From the IMG/VR virus record IMGVR_UViG_3300011113_000415: a DNA stretch of 64,000 bases; one strand, given 5' to 3'. Below the pieces are notes generated by a model. It did not search any database, had not been told where the DNA came from, and saw only the letters and a program-made list of their open reading frames with translations. Both the position numbers and the translations under genes were made by a program. This DNA is from a virus (Duplodnaviria > Caudoviricetes). This document shows, one piece after another, positions 2,109 to 54,294 of the stretch (position 1 is its first letter; every line of letters begins with the position of its first letter).

Positions 2109-2435
2109 ATGTCTGTTAAAATAGAAGCCACTGATTCCATGCTTCAATCCCTTGACTCTCTTAGAACAACGGCCTTGCCCATGCACAAATTATATTTCGA
2201 ACTGTCAAGTGTTGACGCATGGTATGCCATCATGCGTGAAGCACGAGCACAGTTCGGGCAGAACTGGCGTTGTCAACGTCATGTCAAACGCAGATTGGAA
2301 CGTGCGCATATCTGGAATCCACCAGGCACCGCAGAGCGTGTTTGGTTTGAAGTGCCAGATCCTGCTTTTGGCACCTGGGTAGCCATTAAACATGCTGTAC
2401 GGGTAGTGGGTGCCCCAATAAATAAAGATCTATGA
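2109..2435 (+). CDS. Hypothetical protein (divergent member of small paralogue family)
   Basis: AAAGGA SD; C-terminal WFEVPDPAFGTWVAIKH resembles WFDIDDSAETTWLTLKY at 32227. Confidence 0.7.
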   Translation: MSVKIEATDSMLQSLDSLRTTALPMHKLYFELSSVDAWYAIMREARAQFGQNWRCQRHVKRRLERAHIWNPPGTAERVWFEVPDPAFGTWVAIKHAVRVVGAPINKDL

Positions 2436-4063
2436 TATTTGGTTTAGGTATCTTGGCCACTGCACTATTACTGAGTGTGGTGGCCGCTTACTACTCGGTA
2501 GCAGGTTTGACTGCTATCTTCTCAGCGGCCACGATACCAGTTATCATCATGGGTGCCAGTTTGGAACTAGGCAAAATTGTGGCCACAGTATGGTTGCACA
2601 ACAACTGGAAACGTGCCGGCATCATATTCAAACTGTATCTCATACCCGCGGTAGCATTTCTCATGCTACTGACTTCCATGGGTATCTTTGGATATCTCTC
2701 CAAAGCACACTCAGACCAAAGCCTGGTGTCGGGTGATGCTGTGGCCAAGGTTGCCATCTATGATGAAAAGATCAAGATATCCAAAGAAAACATAGATGCC
2801 AACCGTCGCGCTCTCAAACAAATGGACGAAGCCGTTGATCAGGTCATGGGCCGATCAACTGATGAAAAAGGTGCCGACAAGGCCGTGGCCATTCGCAGAA
2901 GCCAGCAACGCGAACGTGCCAGAATGTTGGCCGAAATTGAAACTGAACAGAAAAAGATAACCAGCCTAAACGAAGAACGAGCACCACTTGCGGCCGAATT
3001 CCGCAAGGTTGAGTCGGAAGTGGGTCCAATCAAATACATTGCGGCCTTGGTTTATGGCGACAATCCAGATCAAAACATACTTGAACGAGCGGTACGACTG
3101 GTCATCATCATGATTGTGCTGGTGTTTGATCCACTGGCCCTGACTCTGATTTTGGCTGCCAACAAACAGTTTGAGTGGGCACGACAAGGCACAGGAGGGT
3201 TCATACACGATGATCCCCCACCCCAGTATCCACCAGATGATGGCCCACTCACTGAAGATCAACTAGATCAAATACAAGCCAGTGCGGATCCACATCCACC
3301 CGGTTGGATGTTTAGAGATGATGCGGTCCAACCCGAGCCACCACCACCGCCCGACGATCCTATACCTTGTTACAAATGTGGCACACCTTTGGTAGACGCT
3401 CCCGGCATAGGCCTGTTCTGCCCTAACAAATCCTGTGATGTGATTGACAATGTGTCAGGAGAAGAGCCTGTTGAATTAACGGCACCAGTTAACTATCAAT
3501 TTTTGGATGAGCATCATGAACCAGACCTTCATGTGTATAATGACGAACGCTTGGTCAGTCGCTTTGACAAAATTCAAAGCGCGGAACGTCCAGGCGATTA
3601 TTTGACACCACCTGATGAAGAAACTGATGCTGAAAAAGAAGCCAAACGTCAATGGAAAAGTAAACATCCTGGCGAGACTGTGAAAGAACAAAGACGACTG
3701 CATGAAACAGGTGCAATCAACAGTTTGCCTTGGCAGGACTATATAAATCTGCAGGCCGACAATGACGGCATGCTGTTGAAGACGGGTCAATTGAAAGGCT
3801 TTGGAATTCGTTTCCCTGACAATCCTGTCAAGGGAGATTCATTCATTAGAGTGGATCAATTGCCCAGTGCTTTGTACAAGTACAATGGCATGAAATGGAT
3901 TGAAGTTGACAAAGGTCTCAGTGATCAATATGCCTATGACACAGCCTATATAGATCACTTAATTGACAAACTAACAACAGGCGAGTACGATCCTGAATTG
4001 CTGAATGACGCAGAAAGAGAACAAGTGGCACAACGCTTACAAAACAATACCAAGGGTGCATGA
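2432..4063 (+). CDS. Membrane-anchored coiled-coil protein with Zn-ribbon
   Basis: 3-4 N-terminal TM segments, coiled coil, further TM, Pro-rich linker, CYKC...CPNKSC. Confidence 0.75.
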
Positions 4064-5271
4064 TGGCATCTGATTTGCACAACACCTGCAGTTTTTGCGG
4101 CAAACACAAAGACTCAGTCAAAAAACTCATAGTAGGCGAAAAAGTAGGCATCTGCAATGAGTGTGTGGATTTTTGTCAAGGTTTGTTGATTGATGATTCT
4201 CCAAGATCCACAGATGCTGAACAGACACAACCAAGAAAACTGGACCCCATAGCACTCAAACAATATCTAGATCAGTATGTGATTGGCCAAGATTCAGCCA
4301 AGATCATGTTGAGTGTGGCCATTGTAAATCACTACAAGCGCATCAACAAAACTACTACAGAACCCGAACTGGAAAAGGCCAATGTGCTCATGTTGGGCCC
4401 CACAGGTTCAGGCAAGACCTTGTTGGCCAAATCAGTGGCACGCTATCTCGATGTGCCGTTTGCCATTGCTGATGCCACCAGCATAACCGAAGCAGGTTAT
4501 GTGGGCGACGATGTAGAAAGTTTGATCACCAGATTGTACACAGCCGCTGATGGAGATGTAAACAGAACACAACGTGGCATTGTGTTTGTGGACGAAATTG
4601 ACAAGATTGCTCGCAAAGGTGAAAGCACTTCAATCACAAGAGATGTATCAGGAGAAGGTGTACAACAAGCCTTGCTGAAAATGGTGGAAGGCACTGTGTG
4701 TCGCATACCAGCCGGAGGTGGCCGCAAACACCCATCCGGAGACATGATTGAAATTGATACTAGAAATATCTTGTTCATTGCCGGCGGTGCGTTTGTAGGC
4801 TTGGACTCAATTGTTAAGAATCGTGTGCAAGGAACTTCAATTGGATTTGGTGCTCGAGTAGAAAGTGATTCAAATGCTGACCTTGTGTTGACCACGCCTG
4901 ATGACTTGGTCAAGTATGGCATGATTCCCGAGTTCGTGGGACGTTTTCCCAACTGGGTCAGTTTGCAAGAACTCACCAAACAGGATCTTGTACACATTTT
5001 AACTGAGGTCAAAAACAACTATATCGAGCAGTACCAATGGCTATTTGCTGAAGATGGCGTCGAATTGCAATTCTCAAACGATGCTTTAGATACCATTGCT
5101 GAACGCACACTTGAAAGCCGAACAGGTGCTCGAGGACTACACAGCGAACTGGAACGTGTGCTGATGCCACACATGTACAATCTCAAACGCTATTCTGGAA
5201 TGGGAATAAAGTGCGTACAAATTGATCCTGTTTTGGTAAATATTCCTACAGCACTAGAAGGAACAAATTGA
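4060..5271 (+). CDS. clpX: ATP-dependent Clp protease ATP-binding subunit ClpX
   Basis: CSFCGK...CNECV zinc domain; GPTGSGKT Walker A; FVDEIDK Walker B; [14 protein letters not shown]. Confidence 0.97.
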
Positions 5272-6261: not shown

Positions 6262-6320
6262 TATAATTGTGTAAATACAGTAGCGGGACTGTCCCGCTAC
6301 TGAATCAACAAGGATCATTT

Positions 6321-6629
6321 ATGTCGCAAGCAGAAACAGTTGTAGCCACAAGAACACGAACTTCAGTTAAAGAACCCTGTTTATATCGGGTTATCTATCT
6401 CAATGACAACACAACCACCATGGAATTTGTGGTAGAAACCTTGATAGAATTCTTTGGATACACAGAAGAAACAGCCGCACAGATCACAGTTGACATACAC
6501 GATGCAGGATCAGCCACTGTGGCAGTGTTGCCATATGAGATTGCCGAACAAAAAGGTGGAGAAGTTACACTCAGTGCTAGATCACAGAACTTTCCGCTTC
6601 AGGTCAGAATCGAGCCCGACACAGCCTAG
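6321..6629 (+). CDS. clpS: Clp protease adaptor ClpS
   Basis: YRVIYLNDNTTTMEFVVETL...VDIHDAGSATV...YEIAE; AAGGA SD before ATG 6321. Confidence 0.93.
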   Translation: MSQAETVVATRTRTSVKEPCLYRVIYLNDNTTTMEFVVETLIEFFGYTEETAAQITVDIHDAGSATVAVLPYEIAEQKGGEVTLSARSQNFPLQVRIEPDTA

Positions 6630-10326: not shown

Positions 10327-10825
10327 TACCTGGGCCCGCGGGCATGTGGCACCTTGGTGGGGGTTACGTCATCGCGAGTTGGCCTATTTCAACGAAGCAT
10401 TTAATGATCCTGTGAGTCTCAGTGAATGGCGCAGTCTAGGTTATACGCAAAAGAAATTCACAGGGGATATGTACGACATGCGCATGCCCGAGCCCGAATG
10501 GATGCGACAGTTCTCAGATATTTTTCCATTTCAACATCTCAGTTGGAGCGTGTATCGCATGACACCAGGTTGTGTGTTGCCCACGCACAGCGACACTTAC
10601 ACTAGGTTCAAAGAAATATATGCTGTGCCACCTTCAGTCACAGTGGTGCGTACTATTGTGTATCTTGAAGACTGGGCAAGCGGTCACTACGGGGAAATGG
10701 CTGGAGAGCCCATCACAGGATGGCGTGCTGGGGATTGGGTAAGTTGGCATGATGACTTTCCGCACTTGGCAGCCAACATGGGCCGAACAGATCGTTATAC
10801 ATTGCAATTAACAGGAATATTATGA
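10304..10825 (+). CDS. Cupin or 2OG-Fe(II) oxygenase-like protein
   Basis: PTHSD (HxD) and distal HLAAN. Confidence 0.6.
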   Translation: MATPVKNNTWARGHVAPWWGLRHRELAYFNEAFNDPVSLSEWRSLGYTQKKFTGDMYDMRMPEPEWMRQFSDIFPFQHLSWSVYRMTPGCVLPTHSDTYTRFKEIYAVPPSVTVVRTIVYLEDWASGHYGEMAGEPITGWRAGDWVSWHDDFPHLAANMGRTDRYTLQLTGIL

Positions 10826-11733
10826 TATCAAGTGTCAACGAATGGAGTCCATTAAAAAAGATTGTAGTAGGCTCAGCCACTGATGCCAACTGGCCTGTTA
10901 ACGATCCTGTGTTCGCCAAAGAAAGTGAAAAAACAACCTGGAAAGAATCGCCTGTGCCACGTGGACCAGTTCCACAGCGTATAATTGAAGAAACCAATGA
11001 AGATCTAGATGTATTAACCACGACCTTGATGAGTCTAGGCGTCGAAGTTGTACGCCCAGATCCACTCAATTTTCAAGTTCACGATGGCATGTACAATTAT
11101 TGCCCACGTGACAGGCTGCTGGTGTATGGATCCACAGTGATCGATACCGCCATGATGTATCCTTGTAGAGACATGGAATTGCAATGTTATCATGACTTGA
11201 TACAAAATGCTGACGTTGTCCGCATGCCACGTGATCAAGGCATGGTGTTGGATGCAGCCAATGTATGCAGATTGGGCGATCGCATGTTGTTCTTGGAATC
11301 AGCGTCAGGAAATCGTAAAGCATACCAATGGTTGTGTGATAAGTTTCCTGATGTAAGCATAGAACTCTGCAATTTCTATGCTGGGGTGCATATTGATTCA
11401 ACCATTGTTCCGTTACGTGAAGGCCTGGTCATGCTGAATTCTAGCCGTGTGACGTTTGACAATGTACCACATGTGTTTGATGGTTGGCACAAGATCTGGG
11501 TCAACGACGTGGTAGCACAGGACTTCTATAAATATCCTTATGCATCAAAATGGATAGCCATGAACATGTTGGTAGTTGACCCCCACACTGTTATTTGTGA
11601 TCGGAACCAAACTGAATTGATTAAAACTTTACGGAGTTATCGATTTGAAGTCATTCCTCTTGAATTACGTCACAGTCGCACACTAGGCGGCGGATTTCAT
11701 TGTGTTACATTAGACCTGCATCGTGAGTCATGA
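10822..11733 (+). CDS. Amidinotransferase (glycine/inosamine-phosphate amidinotransferase family)
   Basis: NEWSPL, YCPRD, HIDST, GGGFHCVTLD catalytic motifs. Confidence 0.9.
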   Translation: MISSVNEWSPLKKIVVGSATDANWPVNDPVFAKESEKTTWKESPVPRGPVPQRIIEETNEDLDVLTTTLMSLGVEVVRPDPLNFQVHDGMYNYCPRDRLLVYGSTVIDTAMMYPCRDMELQCYHDLIQNADVVRMPRDQGMVLDAANVCRLGDRMLFLESASGNRKAYQWLCDKFPDVSIELCNFYAGVHIDSTIVPLREGLVMLNSSRVTFDNVPHVFDGWHKIWVNDVVAQDFYKYPYASKWIAMNMLVVDPHTVICDRNQTELIKTLRSYRFEVIPLELRHSRTLGGGFHCVTLDLHRES

Positions 11734-12287: not shown

Positions 12288-13316
12288 ATGACTGCTAGAA
12301 TTGGTTTTTGTTGTAAATGGCTCAATGATCCTTCAGAATGCGGGGGCATGAAAGTCAATGCAAAAGATCGTGATCTCAACGGCAGATCAACTACCATGCG
12401 TTGGCTTCGTGAGCACCCTGAAGATGCTGATCAGCGCCAATGGGATATTATGAACCACAATGCCTCAGCCGCGGTGCGATTGATTGAGCGTGTGGCTACC
12501 TTGCCCGAGGGTCGTAGAATGGTACGACTTGGTAGTGAGATGCTACAAGGCTACACTGAACCCAATTGGATTGACTGGTGGCAACGCACAGAAATACAAG
12601 ATCATTGTGCAAAAATTTTTGCACCTGTTGGCGAGGCCGCTAGACGGCTGGGTGTGCGACTGAGTTTTCATCCTGGACAGTTTTGTGTACTGGCCTCAGA
12701 ATCGGACGAAATCGTAGAACGATCAATCTTGGAATTTGAATATCATGTGGACATGGCTCGTTGGATGGGCTATGGTAAGACCTGGCATGATTCGGGATTC
12801 AAGATCAATGTGCATTTATCGGGCAAAGGTGGTCCCGCTAAATTCTTGCAGACACTAGGGCGACTCACGCCTGAAGCAAGAAACTTGATAACCATCGAGA
12901 ATGACGAGATGACAAATGGATTGGACACTACTTTGGCTGTGGCTCAGCATGTGGCTCTTGTGTTGGATTTGCATCATCATTTTATCATGACTGGGGAATA
13001 TATTTCGTCAGATGATGATCGAATTTCTTATATTGTTGACTCTTGGCGCGGTGTCCGTCCTGCACTTCATTACTCACTGAGCCGAGAAGATGAGTTGATT
13101 GACCATGATTCTAAAATTCGACCGAATCTTTCTGAACTTCTGGCCATTGGTCATAAGAAGCAAAAACTTCGAGCACATTCAGACTTTATGTGGAACAATG
13201 CATGCAACGAATGGGCCCTTACTCATTTAGATTGGGCAGATATCCAAGTTGAAGCAAAAGGAAAAAATCTAGCGAGTCAACAATTATTTGAGTTCTGGAA
13301 AGGCCTTGAAAAATAA
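12288..13316 (+). CDS. uvsE: UV damage endonuclease UvsE/UVDE
   Basis: RLSFHPGQF, NVHLSG, IENDE, LDLHHH, HYS, RAHSD, VEAKGK. Confidence 0.92.
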   Translation: MTARIGFCCKWLNDPSECGGMKVNAKDRDLNGRSTTMRWLREHPEDADQRQWDIMNHNASAAVRLIERVATLPEGRRMVRLGSEMLQGYTEPNWIDWWQRTEIQDHCAKIFAPVGEAARRLGVRLSFHPGQFCVLASESDEIVERSILEFEYHVDMARWMGYGKTWHDSGFKINVHLSGKGGPAKFLQTLGRLTPEARNLITIENDEMTNGLDTTLAVAQHVALVLDLHHHFIMTGEYISSDDDRISYIVDSWRGVRPALHYSLSREDELIDHDSKIRPNLSELLAIGHKKQKLRAHSDFMWNNACNEWALTHLDWADIQVEAKGKNLASQQLFEFWKGLEK

Positions 13317-20764: not shown

Positions 20765-21514
20765 ATGAAACTTTCAGTAATAGCACTAGCACTTGTTGCC
20801 AGTATCGGAGCCGCCCGGGCTCAAACACAACCGCATCCTTATGCGATGAATCAAGCACCTGTGGTGGCACCACCTGCCGCACCTACCTGGTTCACAAGAC
20901 TGCCTGAGGACACTCCGGACATGATCTTTTCAGCCGCAGTAGGTTCCAGTGTGGACGAACAGATGGCCTATGACAAGGCTCGTATGCAAGCCGAACGCAA
21001 ACTGGTTGAACTCATGAGTTCTAGAGTTCGCAGTAATGTTAAAAGTTACCGCAATGACCGTGGCGACTCCATGCAAGAAAGCACAGAGATCACTATCAAC
21101 AAAACAGCCGATGGCGAGTTGATTGGGGCACAACGTGTGGACAGTCAAGCCACGTTTGACGGTCGTGTGTATCGCGTTTATGTGTTGCTACGCTACCCGC
21201 TGGCACAGAACAACACCTTGCGTAAAGAACGTGAGGGTGCTCAAAGCAAACGTGAAGCAGACTTAAGAGCCGCACGGGCACAACAAGATCTTGAGCGTGA
21301 AACTCAACGTCAGCGTACAGACTCAGAAGCCGCAGATCGTAGACTCCGAGAGGAAATTGGACCACGCTCTGATGCTCCGACATCTGCTACTACAGTAAAC
21401 ACCACTGAAGGGCCGGTAAAGTTGCTGGATGTGGACAATGCTGAGTACAAGCAAAAACGTGCTGACGCACTAGCCAAACCTGGCGCAGTGATTGGACAAA
21501 CAGTCGTCCGATAA
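20765..21514 (+). CDS. Secreted LPP20-like protein
   Basis: Signal peptide; PTWF...AVGSS...AYDKARMQA...VYRVYVLL pattern; sigma70-like promoter upstream. Confidence 0.6.
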   Translation: MKLSVIALALVASIGAARAQTQPHPYAMNQAPVVAPPAAPTWFTRLPEDTPDMIFSAAVGSSVDEQMAYDKARMQAERKLVELMSSRVRSNVKSYRNDRGDSMQESTEITINKTADGELIGAQRVDSQATFDGRVYRVYVLLRYPLAQNNTLRKEREGAQSKREADLRAARAQQDLERETQRQRTDSEAADRRLREEIGPRSDAPTSATTVNTTEGPVKLLDVDNAEYKQKRADALAKPGAVIGQTVVR

Positions 21515-21520
21515 ACGGCG

Positions 21521-21555
21521 TATAAATAGAAGCGGTGCCAACAACACCGCTTTTT
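21521..21555 (+). terminator. Late promoter abutting a terminator-like hairpin
   Basis: TATAAATA, then AAGCGGTG/CACCGCTT plus T-run. Confidence 0.65.
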
Positions 21556-21563
21556 CTCTTTTG

Positions 21564-22148
21564 ATGAACATGCCCACACAAGAAATCATCACTACTGATA
21601 AAAACCACACTGACTCCCTGGCCGACTCTGGCATGTATGTTTTCATGGGTGACGTGGATGACGAAAACATCCGACCTGTTATCGAGTGGATGTTGTATGA
21701 AAACTATGTGACTAAGAAAAAGAAAAAAGAACTGCTACTAATGATCTGCTCCAGTGGAGGAGACATGGGTGCGGCCTTTGCACTTATTGACGTCATGATG
21801 AGTAGCCAGATCCCTGTGAAAACTGTGGGGCTGGGTACTATTGCGTCAGCAGGCCTACTAATCTTCATAAGTGGCACTCCGGGCCGTAGAGTACTCACGC
21901 CCAATACATCAATCCTAAGCCATCAGTTCTCCTGGTACAACGAAGGTAAGGTGCATGAGTTGTTTGCCACAATGAAAGAGTTTGAACTTACACAGGCTCG
22001 TATGTTGGCACACTATGAATTGTGTACCGGGCTGGGTAGAGAAGAGATACGCAACAATCTACTACCAGCACAGGATGTTTGGTTATCAGCATCAGAGGCA
22101 CTGGCCCTGGGCGTGTGCGATGATATCAGCGTTTTGAATAGAACTTAG
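21564..22148 (+). CDS. clpP: ClpP-like protease (divergent paralogue)
   Basis: ICSSGG, IASAG (Ser), SHQFS (His), QDVWLSASEA. Confidence 0.85.
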   Translation: MNMPTQEIITTDKNHTDSLADSGMYVFMGDVDDENIRPVIEWMLYENYVTKKKKKELLLMICSSGGDMGAAFALIDVMMSSQIPVKTVGLGTIASAGLLIFISGTPGRRVLTPNTSILSHQFSWYNEGKVHELFATMKEFELTQARMLAHYELCTGLGREEIRNNLLPAQDVWLSASEALALGVCDDISVLNRT

Positions 22149-25015: not shown

Positions 25016-26001
25016 TAACAAAAACATTTGATCAAGGTTGGGGCCAACAATGGCCACTCAAACAATTTGAACAAAGTGTGGTGCAAGATGCGATAAAATA
25101 TTTTGCGGCCAGCAACCAACGTGTGGTCATTATCAACAGCGTATGGTATTCACAGCAGGTGCATGAACAAGTCATGGCATGGTTACGCAACAACGATTGG
25201 GATCAAATTGTGCTGGTGGCCATGTTAGATGCTGCCATACCCCGTGCTGATCAATATGCAGAATTTGACCGTCCTATAACAGGTATAGGCTATTATCCAG
25301 GCGCAGGAAAGGTTGACTTTTGTGCCATGTTTGTTGATCATTTTTTCCAACCACCAGACCAGGACGTTTTACAAAATGCCAGCACTATCGACACTGCCTA
25401 CATGTGTTTGAATCGCAAACCTCATTGGCATAGAAAACAATTGTATGCAAGATTACAGGCGGCAAATCTACTAGACAAAGGTATTGTGAGCATGGGAGGT
25501 GATGGTAAAGCAGTAAAGGCATTGACACAAGACCGTGACCATGACAATTTGGCTCCCAATGCCACACGAGATCACTATGGCATTCCCAACGACATTGTGA
25601 GTCTGGGTCATCCGGGCAATTGGTCTAGACATTTGGTAAACATAGTTACTGAAACCTTTTATGATATCAATCACACAGGATTTGTGAGTGAAAAAATCTA
25701 CAAACCCATTGTGGGGTGCAGACCGTTTTTGGTCTATGATCCTGATGGCGGTACAAAGTGGTTGCAGGATCGAGGGTTTGAACCTTACACGCAAGACTTC
25801 AGCGACATTTCGGATCTAGATCTAGCCTTGCCGCATAACATACCACGATTTCTCAGTGTGCTGTGTGAACAAACTCCTGCTTATTGGCAGAAGAAATTTG
25901 TTGACTTGCAGGAAAAAATCCAGTACAATAAGGCTCATTTTGCTGATTACGTTGCTCAGCAGAACCACATAGTCAAACAAGGAATACCATGCCCAATTTA
26001 G
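25012..26001 (+). CDS. Putative glycosyltransferase-like protein
   Basis: [15 protein letters not shown]...[14 protein letters not shown]. Confidence 0.6.
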
Positions 26002-26585
26002 TGCCAATCGTGCTTGAACAAACAGCCAAAGGCGAACGCAGTTACGACATCTACAGTCGCTTGTTAAAAGACCGTGTGATCATGCTGGACACAGAAGTGT
26101 CAGAACACACAGCCAGTCTGTTGGTGGCACAGATGCTGTTTTTGGAAAGTGAAAACCCAGACAAAGACATAGCCTTGTATATCAATTCGCCAGGCGGAAG
26201 TGTAACAGCAGGCATGGCCATCTATGACACTATGCAGTTTATCAAATGTGATGTGCAAACCATTGTGATGGGTCAGGCCTGCTCCATGGGATCATTGTTG
26301 GCACAAGCAGGTGTCGCAGGCAAGCGCATGATCTTGCCCCATGCTAGACACATGATTCACCAACCTTCGGGTGGTGCTTCAGGCCAGGCCACAGACATTC
26401 AAATTCAAGCCCGTGAGATTCAAAAAATGAAACAGTATCTAACTGAAATCTATGTGCAACACAATACGGCCGGTAAAGACTTTGAAGTTTTAAGTGCAGA
26501 CATGGAACGTGATTTTTTCATGAGTGCTCAAGAAGCCGTGGACTATGGACTGGCGGACAGGATTATTGCAAAACGTGACCTCTAA
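25989..26585 (+). CDS. clpP: ATP-dependent Clp protease proteolytic subunit ClpP
   Basis: [42 protein letters not shown]. Confidence 0.97.
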
Positions 26586-46899: not shown

Positions 46900-47354
46900 A
46901 TCAAAAAACAACGCAATACCAAGCACCCGTATCATCTGGTTTGGGAAGTATCAGCGTTACACCTATTCCTTCACTTTACAGTGGTAGTGGAACTCTGCAT
47001 CCCACCTATGGTGCTGTGCCCAATGTCACAATTGGCACAAGTGCAGTAGGAGTAAATGTGGGGCCAGCAGGTATGTGGACTACCACTGGTACTGGCACCA
47101 GTTATTCTCTCAATCATAAAACAGTATCGGGCGGCAAGGTTCATATCATGGGCGAGGATGCTGATCTTGTGATAGGTGACAAGAGCATGCGAACTTGGAT
47201 GGAGAAGGTAGAAGAACGACTCAACATACTCACACCCAATCCTGAAATGGAAAAAGAATGGGATGATTTACGCAAGTTAGGTGAGAGATATCGTAAGTTA
47301 GAAAAGAAATGCAAGGAAAAATCTGAAGTATGGAAAAGACTAAAAGCAACCTAG
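46857..47354 (+). CDS. Hypothetical protein
   Basis: Low-complexity N-half; ERLNILTPNPEMEKEWDDL. Confidence 0.65.
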   Translation: MASDQISLEEYLAVNQKTTQYQAPVSSGLGSISVTPIPSLYSGSGTLHPTYGAVPNVTIGTSAVGVNVGPAGMWTTTGTGTSYSLNHKTVSGGKVHIMGEDADLVIGDKSMRTWMEKVEERLNILTPNPEMEKEWDDLRKLGERYRKLEKKCKEKSEVWKRLKAT

Positions 47355-48157
47355 TGCCATCAGAATTGATAACACCGCGTGAGCGAATCCGCCACATAGT
47401 CAAGTGGATCCGTGCCTACGCCCGGAGTGCCAAAATCAGCACTTTGGTGGTGGGAATTTCTGGGGGCATTGATTCTTCAGTAGTTTCTACTTTGTGTGCT
47501 GAGACAGGGCTTGATACCATTGTGGTTCAAATGCCCATTCGTCAAAATCGCCGACTGGACAATCGCAGTAGTATGCAGGCTGGATGGTTGCTGGAACGCT
47601 ACAAAAACGTTAGGCACATGAGCATGGACTTGACCCCGGTGTTTACTGCCTTTGAAAAAAAGGTTGGACCGTTTTGTAGCCTAGAGCAAGAGCCCAATGC
47701 AAACGAACAACTGGCATTTGCCAACTCACGTGCTAGACTACGCATGATGACCCTGTACCAAATTGCTCAAAGTCATGGCGGTATTGTTGTGGGCACAGGC
47801 AACCGGGTAGAAGACTTTGGTGTGGGCTTTTTTACCAAGTACGGTGACGGTGGCGTGGACATCAGCCCTATAGGCGATTGCTTAAAAACCGATGTGTGGG
47901 CTATGGGCCGTGAACTGGGTTTAAATCGAGAAATCATTGATGCTGAACCCACTGACGGACTTTGGGATGATGGTCGTACCGATGAGGGGCAACTGGGCAT
48001 GACCTATCCAGAACTAGAAGCAGCCATGGTCATGGATACTGGCCTCGCCGAAGCCATTACCAAGCAACAAAAGGCCAATCTCAAACACTATCAAAAAATA
48101 CGTGCTCGGAATCTGCACAAAATGGAACCTATTCCGGTTTGTAAATTTGACTGGTAA
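47330..48157 (+). CDS. nadE: NH3-dependent NAD+ synthetase
   Basis: GISGGIDS, NSRARLRM, GTGN, FTKYGDGG, PTDGLW. Confidence 0.95.
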   Translation: MEKTKSNLVPSELITPRERIRHIVKWIRAYARSAKISTLVVGISGGIDSSVVSTLCAETGLDTIVVQMPIRQNRRLDNRSSMQAGWLLERYKNVRHMSMDLTPVFTAFEKKVGPFCSLEQEPNANEQLAFANSRARLRMMTLYQIAQSHGGIVVGTGNRVEDFGVGFFTKYGDGGVDISPIGDCLKTDVWAMGRELGLNREIIDAEPTDGLWDDGRTDEGQLGMTYPELEAAMVMDTGLAEAITKQQKANLKHYQKIRARNLHKMEPIPVCKFDW

Positions 48158-48238
48158 ACTACGCCGTTTACTCAAAAATGGCACCTTTTTTGCCCGGTCT
48201 TCGGCGGGTTTGCAATATAGTGAGTAAGTAAAACTACC

Positions 48239-48814
48239 ATGAAAGCACAAGTAAACTATATCAGCGATCAATTGGTGATTTGGAGTTCGCGAGCCTTTAG
48301 ACTGGCAGGACTTTGGATTGTGGCCCTGGCGGTAATTGCTGTTTGCAATCATCGCCTGAGTCAACTGCGATCGGGTGTGGAAGCCATGCCAGCAGGATAT
48401 GTCACAGCCGCAGAAAAAATTCGCCAACTGGATTGTCTCACACGCAACATCTACTGGGAAGCCGCATCAGAGCCTTTTGAGGGCAAAGTTGCTGTGGCCC
48501 AGGTCACAATGAATAGACTGGCCACTGGACGCTTTGGCGATTCAGTGTGCGGTGTAATCTATCAAAAAAACATATTCTATGAACGAGTAATCTGCCAGTT
48601 TTCGTGGGTGTGCGAGAACACACACCGTATCAAACCTGTGTATGCTCCACTGTGGGCTGAATCAGAACTGGTAGCCAAAAAAGTCTTGTTGGAAAACTTC
48701 CGTTTACCCGGACTCAAAGAAGCACTTTACTATCACGCAGAATATGTTACCCCGGGCTGGAAGAAGCCCCGAATCGATAAAATTGGTCATCACATCTTTT
48801 ACGGAGAGCGTTAA
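48239..48814 (+). CDS. Cell wall hydrolase (SleB/Hydrolase_2)
   Basis: CLTRNIYWEA, VAQVTMNR, CQFSW, ALYYHA, IGHHIFY. Confidence 0.92.
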   Translation: MKAQVNYISDQLVIWSSRAFRLAGLWIVALAVIAVCNHRLSQLRSGVEAMPAGYVTAAEKIRQLDCLTRNIYWEAASEPFEGKVAVAQVTMNRLATGRFGDSVCGVIYQKNIFYERVICQFSWVCENTHRIKPVYAPLWAESELVAKKVLLENFRLPGLKEALYYHAEYVTPGWKKPRIDKIGHHIFYGER

Positions 48815-49128
48815 TGCCTTTCAAATTTCCGGTCACCATAGTAGCCATACGGGATTATCTCAACAACAGCCTGGCTCGACTTTCAGCAGATACCTTGGGT
48901 TGGCTGGCAGCCATTGTGTTGCATTGTGCAACTTTGCCGGCTTTTTTGGCCTTGATGACCGGACTAAGCGATCGCACTCCCAGTCTTGATGTCATACTGT
49001 TTCTTTGGTCGGGCCTGGTTCTCTTGTTTCTGCGGGCAGTGGTACTCCGAGACATCCTGAACATTGTGACCATTGGATTTGGATTCATATTGCAGTCAGG
49101 ATTCATGGCTCTAATCTTGTTCAAATAA
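48814..49128 (+). CDS. Membrane protein
   Basis: Three hydrophobic segments. Confidence 0.7.
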   Translation: MPFKFPVTIVAIRDYLNNSLARLSADTLGWLAAIVLHCATLPAFLALMTGLSDRTPSLDVILFLWSGLVLLFLRAVVLRDILNIVTIGFGFILQSGFMALILFK

Positions 49129-49647
49129 ATGATACCCGAAGAAATTGAAAAGGTGTTGACTGATTGGATGTTCAACTTTGTAGAACAACCCCATCCTGGC
49201 TTGGGCAACTGGCCACCATGTCCATATGCGCGACAGGCAAGAATCAACAATCAAATCAAAATTGTTCACAGTGATCCTGAAAAATTGATAGCCACAGTTG
49301 AACAACAATTGCCCGAGTTGGAACAAAAAGAAGTTGTGGTCGTTTGTTTTGATCACACAAAAATTTCTGCTGAGTACTTGGAAAAACTAATTAAAGAGTA
49401 TAACCAACAAGTGTTGATGGTCCAAAACTATGTGATACTTGAAGATCATCCGGATGCAAAAGAATATGTAAATGGTGTTCATATGAACTTTGGCCATTGC
49501 GGATTACTGATCATACAAAAACTAGATCGACTAACACAAGCAAGTGAACAACTCAAATCAAAAGGTTATTATTATACATGGAACCAGAGTGAACTGGATC
49601 AGGTGGTAACATGGCGAAGTCAATTAAATTTTGCAGAATTGATTTAG
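49129..49647 (+). CDS. DUF1415-like protein
   Basis: W..NFV...LG..PPCPYAR, LEDHP, GYY..W. Confidence 0.55.
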   Translation: MIPEEIEKVLTDWMFNFVEQPHPGLGNWPPCPYARQARINNQIKIVHSDPEKLIATVEQQLPELEQKEVVVVCFDHTKISAEYLEKLIKEYNQQVLMVQNYVILEDHPDAKEYVNGVHMNFGHCGLLIIQKLDRLTQASEQLKSKGYYYTWNQSELDQVVTWRSQLNFAELI

Positions 49648-50051
49648 CAAAAACCAATTATGATCTGTATCCTGATACTGAACAATGGTACTGGGCTAGT
49701 GGGCTAGATCTTTATCAAAAAATATACAAGCAATACTGTGATTATAAAAATTTTCAAAGTGTAATGCCATTGTTTTTGCAACAGTTTCAAGATTCTCGCA
49801 ATGATACACATGTGTATTACAACAATCAAGAAATTGTGGCCTGGAGCCTGTGTCGACGCTGGGACAATTGCAATGCAGAAAGTTTACAGTTTGCTTGGAA
49901 TTATCGAGAGCCTGAACTAGAACTAGGCCGCCGCAGTCTTGAACACGAATGTGCTTACTACAAAAAAATGGGTTATGAGTACCTGTATCTAGGTCAAGTG
50001 GCCGAATACAAAACAAATTTTGATGGCTACGAAGAACTGGGGACACTGTAA
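49611..50051 (+). CDS. Arg/Leu-tRNA-protein transferase C-terminal-like (ATE/Bpt) GNAT protein
   Basis: LYQKIYKQY, AWNY...LG..SL..E...GYEYLYLG...YK..F..YEEL. Confidence 0.6.
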   Translation: MAKSIKFCRIDLAKTNYDLYPDTEQWYWASGLDLYQKIYKQYCDYKNFQSVMPLFLQQFQDSRNDTHVYYNNQEIVAWSLCRRWDNCNAESLQFAWNYREPELELGRRSLEHECAYYKKMGYEYLYLGQVAEYKTNFDGYEELGTL

Positions 50052-50383
50052 TGGATTTATACACAATTTGGGCGGACAAACAAGGTGACATCTCTGACTT
50101 TGAATGGGTCAACGGCATGAAGAGTTTCTTTGACCACCTAATCTTAGAAGGTCGAATGGAGTCATATAGAATCACTAGATGCAAGATGGGATTCCGTTCA
50201 ATAGCCGACATGCCTGAGTGGATGATTATTATGGAGTTTAAAGACATGGGCCAAATGGATTCGGCATTCCGTAGAGTGGCCCCGCTGGAAGGCGAATTGG
50301 AAGAGAAACACCGTAGTTTCAACCAGTTTGTGTCGGGCAACATACAACACGCTCTATTCAGAGATTGGCCCGATCAGTTCTAA
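50051..50383 (+). CDS. DUF6614-like small protein
   Basis: YTIW...FFDHL...RCKMGFRS..MPEW.IIMEF; tentative. Confidence 0.55.
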   Translation: MDLYTIWADKQGDISDFEWVNGMKSFFDHLILEGRMESYRITRCKMGFRSIADMPEWMIIMEFKDMGQMDSAFRRVAPLEGELEEKHRSFNQFVSGNIQHALFRDWPDQF

Positions 50384-50426
50384 TACCATAGTATTACTTG
50401 ACTACAAAAGCCCAATGTGCTATAAT
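50380..50426 (+). promoter_or_regulatory. Palindrome plus early promoter
   Basis: CTAATAC-CATA-GTATTAC; TTGACT-17-TATAAT. Confidence 0.8.
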
Positions 50427-51719: not shown

Positions 51720-51937
51720 CAGATTTTGAACAACGATTTCCCTTTAAGGGTAAAACCTTATGTCTGCATGAAGATGTAGTTTCATGGTTAGAAACCCACG
51801 TAGGCAAGTTTGATCATGATTGGTATCGATATGGAACAGACATAGCAATGGGTATTGTTGCCGGTGCACCTCTGTGTGATTACTATAGATTTCGCACTGA
51901 GGAGTCGGCTGTATTGTTTGCCTTGAAGTGGTCATGA
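51716..51937 (+). CDS. Small F-x-L-K-W family protein
   Basis: YRFRTEESAVLFALKWS. Confidence 0.7.
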   Translation: MTDFEQRFPFKGKTLCLHEDVVSWLETHVGKFDHDWYRYGTDIAMGIVAGAPLCDYYRFRTEESAVLFALKWS

Positions 51938-53079
51938 ACAATTGGTATTGTCCTTTACCATTTAAACATGCCTTTGTTGACAGCACCGGGGTGGCTGTGT
52001 GTTGCAAAGCGCCAAGGCAATCAATTGATTTAGATCAATGGGCTAATAGCGAACATGTCAAAAACATACAACGACAAATGCTTAGTGGACAGATACCACC
52101 GATATGCCAAAGTTGCGTAAACGAAGAAAAAATAACCGGACGAAGTTTGAGAACTGACAGTCAGCAAGATTACAACTATGAAAGATTTGTTGAAACTGCC
52201 ATTGATTTTGTTGACTATCGAGCCAACAACATCTGCAATTTCAAATGCCGAAGTTGCTTTCCTAAATTCAGTCATGGCATTGACAACGAAACAAAAAATA
52301 GTACTGTGCTTCAAAAATTTTATCAACCCACCAGCACAAAGATTGTCACAGTCAATGATGCTAATACTGAATGGATTGCCGACAACTTGCATCAAATCAA
52401 ACGCCTGATGCTGACCGGTGGTGAACCCACACGCATGCCCAAGATCAAAAGTATTGTGGAACAGATTGTGTACGACAAATTGGATACTCAAATCTTAATC
52501 ACTACCAATGGCAGTTTTGAAGATGACTTTTGGTATGAACTCACTAGACTGCATGACAATCTGCACTGGACTGTGAGTTTGGATGCAGTGGGATCTGCAG
52601 CCGAAATCATTCGGCATGGAACTGATTGGAAGATTGTAGAAGCCAATGCTAAATGGTTGGCTTCGCATTCGTCCAGCATGAATGTCAATACAACTGTGAC
52701 TCATTTGAATATCTTACAACTTGGATCATTGTTAAAATTTGTAAAAGAACTTCAAAAGGAAAGCATATATCCAAGAGGCCGACATGGTGCTAATGGTATA
52801 AGGCATCAGTTTGCTATAACACCGAATCCACCCCAGTTATCGATAGATTGCTTGCCAGCAGATCTTAAAGCCAAAGCAATCATTCATTTAGAAAATTGCC
52901 TTGCACTGGATCTTGACGCCGAGCAAAAACAAACCATTAAAGGATTATTGACACATTTGAAACAAGTGAACTTTAATTCATTGTATTGGCAACGCAGTTC
53001 GGAATTCAATCAAGAGTTAGATCGTATTCGAGGAGAAAACTACATGGAATTGTATGAAGAAAAAACGTTTATTAACTGA
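51934..53079 (+). CDS. Radical SAM protein
   Basis: CNFKCRSC, TGGEP; N-terminal CPLPF Cys cluster. Confidence 0.88.
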   Translation: MNNWYCPLPFKHAFVDSTGVAVCCKAPRQSIDLDQWANSEHVKNIQRQMLSGQIPPICQSCVNEEKITGRSLRTDSQQDYNYERFVETAIDFVDYRANNICNFKCRSCFPKFSHGIDNETKNSTVLQKFYQPTSTKIVTVNDANTEWIADNLHQIKRLMLTGGEPTRMPKIKSIVEQIVYDKLDTQILITTNGSFEDDFWYELTRLHDNLHWTVSLDAVGSAAEIIRHGTDWKIVEANAKWLASHSSSMNVNTTVTHLNILQLGSLLKFVKELQKESIYPRGRHGANGIRHQFAITPNPPQLSIDCLPADLKAKAIIHLENCLALDLDAEQKQTIKGLLTHLKQVNFNSLYWQRSSEFNQELDRIRGENYMELYEEKTFIN

Positions 53080-53751: not shown

Positions 53752-54294
53752 ATGCGTGAACATATCAACCTCGTGGAAGCAACAACTCGTCCGGCCAAAC
53801 TGGAAACAACTCCTTTGCCCTATGGACAGGATGATCTAAACCCTGTGCTGAGTAGGGAAAGCATAAACTATCACTATGAGCACCTGGCCAAAGGCTATGC
53901 CAAAAGATATAATGAAGGCGAAGGCGATGCAGATTTCAATCGCGCCGGCAGTTTCTTACACAATAAGTTTTTCCCACAACTACAACCCCCAAAGGGAACC
54001 AATCGCCCACGTGGCGCAGTACTGGAACTGATTGAGCGCAAATTCAAAAGTTACGAAAACTTCCAGGACGAAGTCAAAAAAACAGCCATGAAGATCCAAG
54101 GCTCAGGCTGGGTATATTTGAGTACTGGCGGCGAAATCAAAACCATCCGGAACCATGCAGTACGTACAGATATATGCGTACTTATTGACTGGTGGGAACA
54201 TGTTTGGGCAACAGATTACCAGTGGGACAAAGAAAAGTATCTGGACAACATCTGGCGCATCATCAACTGGGACGTTTGTTCTGATAGATTATAA
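53752..54294 (+). CDS. sod: Fe/Mn superoxide dismutase
   Basis: LPY, YHY..H, HN.FF, GSGW, DWWEH ligand motifs. Confidence 0.9.
   Translation: MREHINLVEATTRPAKLETTPLPYGQDDLNPVLSRESINYHYEHLAKGYAKRYNEGEGDADFNRAGSFLHNKFFPQLQPPKGTNRPRGAVLELIERKFKSYENFQDEVKKTAMKIQGSGWVYLSTGGEIKTIRNHAVRTDICVLIDWWEHVWATDYQWDKEKYLDNIWRIINWDVCSDRL

Follow-up and report, generated by a model that had tools for sequence, protein, structure and literature searches.

The locus and its conservation

The 64,000-nucleotide stretch of viral DNA analyzed here (IMG/VR record IMGVR_UViG_3300011113_000415, referred to hereafter as the window) is mostly plus-strand, phage-like coding sequence, and encodes at 49129–50383 the module that is the subject of this work: ORF1 (49129–49647, 172 amino acids, aa), ORF2 (49611–50051, 146 aa) and ORF3 (50051–50383, 110 aa), all on the + strand. 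Inspection of the sequence places the ORF1 ATG directly after the TAA of the upstream ORF, reveals a 37-nucleotide (nt) overlap of ORF1 and ORF2 (with AGGTGG 6 nt 5′ of the ORF2 ATG), and has ORF2 end and ORF3 begin within a common TAATG; read in this way the three genes are translationally coupled, in keeping with an initial annotation that had marked them as a tightly coupled trio and proposed a phage N-degron writer. The exact ORF1–3 proteins lie on a 334,901-bp contig, and because each has many homologues in uncultured phages we take them to be real genes.

A scan of IMG/VR returned 92 viral stretches, 80 of which were kept as loci (by CheckV estimate, nearly all ORF2 loci are fragments of very large phages); dereplication at 90% ORF2 identity left 33 groups flanked by 3 kb or more on either side, and the ORFs of the loci were clustered. 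ORF1 adjoins ORF2 in 75/80 loci, and the remaining five either hold ORF1 elsewhere in the record (three loci) or are fragments (two). The initial annotation had staked its reading on the three genes being conserved as neighbors, and this they are: within 3 kb of ORF2, the 33 groups carry ORF1 in 32 cases and ORF3 in 26, together with a fourth gene, X (an arginine amidinotransferase homologue, described below), in 24 and a radical SAM gene in 15. In 19 of these groups ORF1, ORF3 and X all lie within this distance of ORF2, making the set of four complete. The order of the genes varies, with at least five arrangements among the loci (ORF1>ORF2>ORF3; ORF1>ORF2>X>ORF3; ORF1>ORF2>ORF3>X; ORF2>ORF3>ORF1; and ORF2 convergent with an ORF3-X-ORF1 operon on the opposite strand).

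ORF2 resembles the catalytic half of an aminoacyl-tRNA transferase

The sole Pfam match of ORF2 is ATE_C (PF04377; E 1.4e-4, with 22.9 bits where the cut-off is 25). The same family is matched by 22/22 diverse ORF2 relatives (best E 2e-7), some of which exceed the cut-off (25.4–26.2 bits), as do longer relatives (25.5–49 bits); relatives of 225–270 aa also carry ATE_C alone. A profile of the ORF2 family matches K. lactis Ate1 (KlAte1) among PDB sequences (E 3e-4), and no Pfam match of ORF2 to ATE_N was obtained at E up to 1. The AlphaFold model (predicted local distance difference test score, pLDDT, 96.3) comprises one complete GNAT domain, residues 1–146 of which superpose on the C-terminal (second) GNAT of MprF, L-PGS, FemX and Sba18/Sbb17 (Z 12.2–14.8 overall, and 12.8–14.8 for MprF, L-PGS, FemX and Sba18), the best structural matches being MprF, L-PGS and FemX (Z 14–15). 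The first description of ORF2, as a 146-aa ATE/Bpt C-terminal-like protein devoid of the usual N-terminal domain, is thus upheld by the ATE_C matches, the missing ATE_N and the single-GNAT model; lacking ATE_N, ORF2 would represent the donor-binding and catalytic half only.

To place individual residues, ORF2 was mapped onto KlAte1 using a HMMER alignment and the published description of the yeast enzyme (PMC9351520; the PDB chain index equals the residue number plus 4, verified on five named residues), and each column was counted over 55 family sequences. The essential Tyr303-Lys304 pair of KlAte1 (Lys305 in FemX) corresponds to Y133-K134 of ORF2, present in 55/55. Within the Arg pocket, Ser273 and Glu277 of KlAte1 fall on S109 and E113 (each 55/55), Ser255 falls on S91 (Ser in 34, Ala in 10 and Cys in 8 sequences) and Tyr289 on L125 (47/55). 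These four positions are Ser255/Ser273/Glu277/Tyr289 in ATE1 and Ala/Ala/Gln/Leu in the Leu-transferase Bpt, and the charge of the acidic residue is required for arginylation by ATE1 (PMC9351520); the ORF2 pocket is ATE1-like at three of the four, namely the polar ones, acidic residue included. The acetyl-CoA loop Q/RxxGxG/A is absent from the ORF2 family, in which the region contains L103 (51/55), G106 (55/55) and, at the variable position 108, R, K, E or A. The ATE_C matches, catalytic residues and pocket together suggest that ORF2 is probably a minimal ATE_C-type aminoacyl-tRNA transferase with an Arg-type pocket.

An exhaustive profile search recovered only 190 ORF2 relatives among 1.84 billion representatives, and by sequence the family is a small clade whose placeable records are viral or unassigned metagenome contigs. 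One match lies on a 6.3-kb contig of a Bacteroidetes metagenome-assembled genome, where the same phage module is found. Among cultured phages we found no homologue of ORF2 or ORF3 and no similar DNA.

ORF1 is a putative haem protein with an AglA-like fold

The best Pfam match of ORF1 is DUF6875 (PF21780; E 8e-4, 19.9 bits against 24.5, residues 10–55 only), a family also matched by 19/41 ORF1 relatives, in every case below threshold. The label first given to ORF1, DUF1415-like, is weak: a match to DUF1415 (PF07209) exists, at a marginal, sub-threshold level (E 0.047, 13.9 bits where the cut-off is 26; weak in 7/41 relatives). Modeling with AlphaFold, a check put forward with the initial annotation and run for ORF2 and ORF1, gave confident models of both, the second (pLDDT 93.2) with an AglA-like fold. 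In an exhaustive VIA search of 48,161 chains, AglA (9ub3_A) is the sole chain with Z of at least 5 against ORF1 (Z 7.4, root mean square deviation 3.9, 150/172 residues aligned), the next chain reaching Z 4.0. With Foldseek nothing matched ORF1 at E 0.001 or better, and a search of PDB sequences with the ORF1 sequence profile failed to recover AglA.

AglA is the prototype YqcI/YcgG thiolate-haem guanidine N-hydroxylase, in which a four-stranded sheet is held between helices and Cys44 serves as the haem ligand (PMC12866846). DUF6875 has in turn been reported as “cytochrome P422”, whose sandwich fold also has a Cys ligand to the haem and whose motif is RxGxVCP (2025 preprint). ORF1 shares with both the sandwich of a four-stranded sheet and helices and a Cys-Pro near the N-terminus, and its DUF6875 match runs across this Cys-Pro stretch. 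C31 is invariant (41/41) within PCP(Y/F)A(R/K)xA, as is the C31-P32 pair, and a second conserved element, L-E-D-H at 104–107, has L104, D106 and H107 invariant; E112 and Y147-Y148 are invariant too. Alignment with six YqcI/YcgG proteins from Bacteroidota genomes by hhalign sets PPCPYARQA (including C31) on HPCxMAQ, with a probability of 9% and P 0.0035. In contrast to P422 and AglA, the substrate motifs (for Trp and Arg, respectively) are unrecognizable in ORF1, and of the RxGxVCP motif of P422 it keeps Cys-Pro only. The YqcI_YcgG hidden Markov model (HMM, PF08892), which did pick up its control genomes, found nothing at E up to 10 when run on five phage records that carry ORF1, and it does not appear among the Pfam matches of ORF1; a search of 401 Bacteroidota genomes turned up no PF21780. 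By these sequence searches ORF1 belongs to neither Pfam family, DUF6875 nor YqcI_YcgG; from its modeled fold and the position of the invariant cysteine, it is probably a Cys31-ligated haem oxygenase of the AglA/P422 sandwich-fold class.

Two other assignments of ORF1 were considered and set aside: a thioredoxin/glutaredoxin-like CPYA protein (the fold search gave no thioredoxin-fold match) and a substitute for ATE_N (no ATE_N match).

ORF1-like proteins of 21–31% identity also occur in cultured cyanophages and phages of marine alphaproteobacteria (S-PM2, Syn1, S-RIM44, S-H9-2, HMO-2011 and CRP-345/810), all of which lack ORF2 and ORF3; the family of haem-like proteins thus extends well beyond the module. 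In cyanophage S-H9-2 and phage HMO-2011, the neighbors of these genes are hypothetical and so uninformative.

ORF3 and the amidinotransferase homologue X

ORF3 is a DUF6614 protein (PF20319; 75.2 bits over residues 1–109, cut-off 25), as first annotated, and 30/30 ORF3 relatives match the same family. It is the most conserved of the trio, with 87–94% identity where ORF2 has 67–77%, and its invariant residues are Y4, R43, K45, GFRS (47–50), H87 and H100 (alignment A4). The Atlas neighbors of ORF3 all belong to viral clusters. An ORF3 profile found nothing among PDB sequences, and further Pfam matches (DIMCO_N, Chlor_dismutase) are marginal; the fold is possibly an EthD-like alpha+beta barrel, the EthD/DUF6974 link being a feature-based lead. 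The DUF6614 label that appears in an anti-Druantia screen was set aside, being a distant annotation attached to an unrelated phage ORF.

For X (~360–446 aa), Pfam gives nothing at E 0.01 or better. Its profile matches L-arginine:glycine amidinotransferase (AGAT) at E 3.8e-27, and SxtG, HsvA and StrB1 as well, and it keeps the Asp/His/Cys catalytic residues in PRD, H-x-D and GG-x-HC motifs. In the two closest relatives of the window, X lies 30–33 kb downstream of ORF2, and from synteny with these two records we would expect it beyond the window end in this genome. The window does encode, 38 kb upstream of the module, a 303-aa protein of the amidinotransferase/DDAH superfamily type (10822–11733, + strand; found by tblastn, with PRD, HID and GGGFHC). 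This is a distant paralogue of X (21–24% identity) with a sub-threshold dimethylargininase match (E 1.4e-4), and one related locus (L061) has an orthologue of it 2 kb upstream of ORF2; we give the window protein as context only.

A possible arginine/guanidine-modifying pathway

Three probable enzymes of types that deal with arginine or guanidino groups travel together, namely an ATE-type transferase with an Arg-like pocket, an AglA-like haem protein and an arginine amidinotransferase, and arginine/guanidine chemistry is therefore suggested. We put at roughly 0.5 the probability that ORF1–3 are the core of a jumbo-phage-specific cassette that builds or oxidizes an arginine-like (guanidino) group on an acceptor. 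The basis of this proposal is homologies, conserved residues and gene linkage, from which we infer each of the catalytic steps. ORF2 would use aminoacyl-tRNA as the donor of an aminoacyl group (arginyl being the likeliest) and join this group as an amide to an amine acceptor, which could be a small molecule, a glycan or a protein. Because ORF2 is without an acceptor-reading first domain, the acceptor site would probably be supplied in trans or be unlike that of ATE1, with ORF1 the obvious candidate partner. ORF1 would then oxygenate the product, for example by guanidine N-hydroxylation of the kind that AglA performs on AMPn-Arg, as its fold and motif suggest. X, inside the module in most lineages, may act on the same substrate, as may ORF3, an obligate-looking third component.

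More tentative is a narrower version, in which ORF1 and ORF2 would form a two-protein enzyme that attaches tRNA-delivered arginine to an acceptor and N-oxygenates the guanidine, constituting with the amidinotransferase and the DUF6614 protein the first known viral tRNA-dependent tailoring or secondary-metabolite pathway. If true, the product (e.g., an N-hydroxyguanidine compound, or a modified virion or host macromolecule) would come from hundreds of abundant aquatic jumbo phages.

The closest precedent is argolaphos biosynthesis in Streptomyces monomycini, where AMPn-Arg is made with tRNA, ArgRS and the Arg-tRNA-dependent ligase AglC before AglA N-hydroxylates the guanidine; GNAT-superfamily ligases (342 and 356 aa, Acetyltransf_6/COG3146-type) are encoded beside the YqcI/YcgG gene (PMC12866846, PMC8976061). 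The phage pair would comprise the same two enzyme types, side by side. The differences are several: ORF2 is a 146-aa single-domain protein of ATE_C type, unlike those ligases; ORF1 lies outside the YqcI_YcgG HMM and is ~70–100 aa shorter than AglA; and the phage module is without phosphonate genes, having instead DUF6614 and usually an amidinotransferase. Comparison with ATE1/Bpt follows the same pattern, in that the ATE_C core is homologous and the catalytic Tyr-Lys and an ATE1-like Ser/Ser/Glu pocket are shared, whereas ORF2, devoid of ATE_N, has neither the pocket for an N-terminal Asp/Glu acceptor nor the Cys cluster, falls short of Bpt by ~90 aa and of ATE1 by ~360 aa, and belongs to a family confined to uncultured phages in which it always occurs with ORF1. 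X of related phages keeps the fold and Asp/His/Cys residues of AGAT, StrB1, SxtG and HsvA, but stands outside all Pfam models at E 0.01 and is non-adjacent in the lineage of this window.

To our knowledge, few enzymes divert aminoacyl-tRNA from the ribosome: ATE1/Bpt/Aat, Fem, MprF, cyclodipeptide synthases, PEARLs and a handful of antibiotic ligases. In the literature we found no description of a viral aminoacyl-tRNA-diverting enzyme, of a phage ATE_C-type enzyme or of the ORF1–3 module; the enzyme families are known, and what is new is the single-domain transferase, its obligate pairing with ORF1 and the viral setting. ORF2 shows how small a putative tRNA-dependent transferase can be, and offers a natural test of whether a separate protein can supply the acceptor-binding half. 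Its pairing with a newly recognized thiolate-haem sandwich-type protein, usually with an amidinotransferase in addition, points to arginine/guanidine chemistry, which, if the proposal is correct, abundant freshwater and marine jumbo phages would run while infecting.

Weighing the arginine pathway against other explanations

A number of observations weigh against the arginine/guanidine cassette. The ORF2 of the window scores just below the ATE_C cut-off, the acyl-CoA GNATs VipF and NMT tie in Z with the tRNA-dependent enzymes, and the assignment of Arg hangs on three pocket residues. ORF1 misses the YqcI_YcgG HMM, is sub-threshold for DUF6875 and aligns with YqcI/YcgG proteins at an hhalign probability of just 9%; at 70–100 residues shorter than AglA, its haem binding is putative. 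Cyanophages and HMO-2011 have ORF1-like genes but no ORF2, and X is absent from the 64-kb window.

The first group of these would suit an explanation in which ORF2 does without tRNA, whether as a GNAT that uses acyl-CoA or as a subunit with no catalytic role, and the module is unrelated to arginine. Given the tie of VipF and NMT, fold alone cannot name the ORF2 donor, and a few ORF2 members have weak Acetyltransf_1/_6 matches. Sequence is more discriminating here: the marginal ATE_C score of the window copy belongs to a match that is consistent family-wide and rises above the cut-off in longer relatives, the Q/RxxGxG/A loop is absent, and both the Fem/ATE catalytic Tyr-Lys and the Glu277 equivalent are invariant. 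We consider it unlikely that ORF2 acts without tRNA; in particular, the ordinary acetyl-CoA GNAT that the first annotation had named as fatal to its own proposal is not what the missing loop and the retained Tyr-Lys indicate.

Bpt/ATE enzymes move Leu or Arg from tRNA to protein N-termini, and ClpS reads Leu/Phe/Tyr/Trp N-degrons for ClpAP; Arg is no ClpS degron. On this background the initial annotation had suggested that the phage writes and reads its own degradation tags, such that ORF2 would add a tRNA-borne destabilizing residue to N-termini, phage ClpS would read it, and ClpAP or a phage ClpXP would degrade the tagged protein. The kinship of ORF2 with ATE1/Bpt is consistent with such a role, and the Clp genes that had been listed are indeed encoded in the window: ClpX at 4060–5271 (an ORF scanned with Pfam), two ClpPs at 25989–26585 and 21492–22148, and ClpS at ~6267–6629 (located by a tblastn search that used ClpS genes from related phage records as queries). 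ClpS is also found in 10/30 ORF2-bearing viral records, mostly fragments. The pocket for a substrate N-terminal Asp/Glu, however, sits in ATE_N (PMC9351520), which ORF2 lacks, and the donor pocket is Arg-like, leaving only an indirect route to ClpS via host Aat, which could convert N-terminal Arg into a Leu/Phe degron (established N-degron biology). Gene linkage argues in the same direction: ClpS is 43 kb from the module in the window and 13–58 kb away in complete relatives, never near it; the 98%-complete genome G017 has ORF1–3 and no ClpS; no ClpA-like ATPase is present among the window ORFs scanned with Pfam; and the genes that keep company with ORF2 code for an oxygenase-like protein and an amidinotransferase instead of Clp proteins. 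An N-degron writer is accordingly improbable. The other possibility raised at the outset, a small tRNA-dependent product of the trio, agrees with the ATE_C-type GNAT with its catalytic Tyr-Lys and the joint conservation of the genes, and the module looks like an undescribed arginine/guanidine-modifying pathway, not a degradation tagger.

Two ORFs in the clpX region, one of 543 aa directly upstream of clpX (2432–4063, + strand) and one of 108 aa (2109–2435), have no Pfam match.

Genomic surroundings of the module

Upstream of ORF1 on the + strand lie a Hydrolase_2 (SleB-like) cell-wall hydrolase gene (48239–48814; Pfam and PHROG endolysin matches, with an N-terminal hydrophobic segment in the protein) and a gene for a 104-aa multi-pass hydrophobic protein (48814–49128) that abuts or overlaps its neighbors. 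The two (48239–49128) resemble an endolysin/holin-like pair. A terminator-like hairpin precedes the hydrolase gene (48163–48182), and a promoter-like site, TTGACT-17-TATAAT (11/12, with TG; 50398–50426, + strand), follows directly 3′ of ORF3, both being consensus matches only. From this layout, a transcription unit probably runs from the Hydrolase_2 gene (48239) through the 104-aa protein gene to ORF1–3, and the promoter-like site likely marks its end. The upstream neighbors are of restricted occurrence (the hydrolase in 10/80 loci, the 104-aa protein in 6/80), and co-transcription of the trio with them is probably a feature of this lineage only.

That ORF2, in the manner of FemX/MprF, aminoacylates a host peptidoglycan precursor or membrane lipid in concert with the upstream hydrolase and membrane protein would account for its best structural matches and for the apparent co-transcription in this lineage, but is very unlikely given how few loci have the hydrolase, the lack in ORF2 of a membrane domain or first GNAT domain, a sequence affinity to ATE_C and not to the DUF2156 or FemAB families, and the haem-like and amidinotransferase partners that it leaves unexplained.

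Diverged radical SAM enzymes recur near the module and are frequent, non-obligate neighbors of it. The window encodes one at 51928–53079 (+ strand; Pfam and PHROG matches) and another related locus two (L012:5070–6011 and L012:9851–10936); in the convergent arrangement, one radical SAM gene stops directly at the ORF2 start. Further downstream in the window, the homologue of the ORF at 53752–54294 (+ strand) in a related locus (L001:10873–11514) is an Fe/Mn superoxide dismutase by Pfam. The dismutase cluster is found at a median of ~2.6 kb from ORF2 in 13/42 locus groups, and at 3 kb or less in 6; such a neighbor may matter for a haem enzyme that activates oxygen.

No tRNA genes were found in the 64-kb window. 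The hairpin at 48163–48182 comes after a gene for the NAD synthetase NadE (47330–48157, + strand; Pfam 160 bits, PHROG 277 bits). Elsewhere, the phage encodes a Bax inhibitor-1 family membrane protein (488–1171, + strand, 187 bits) and a homologue of the UV-damage endonuclease UvdE (12288–13316, + strand, 99.8 bits).

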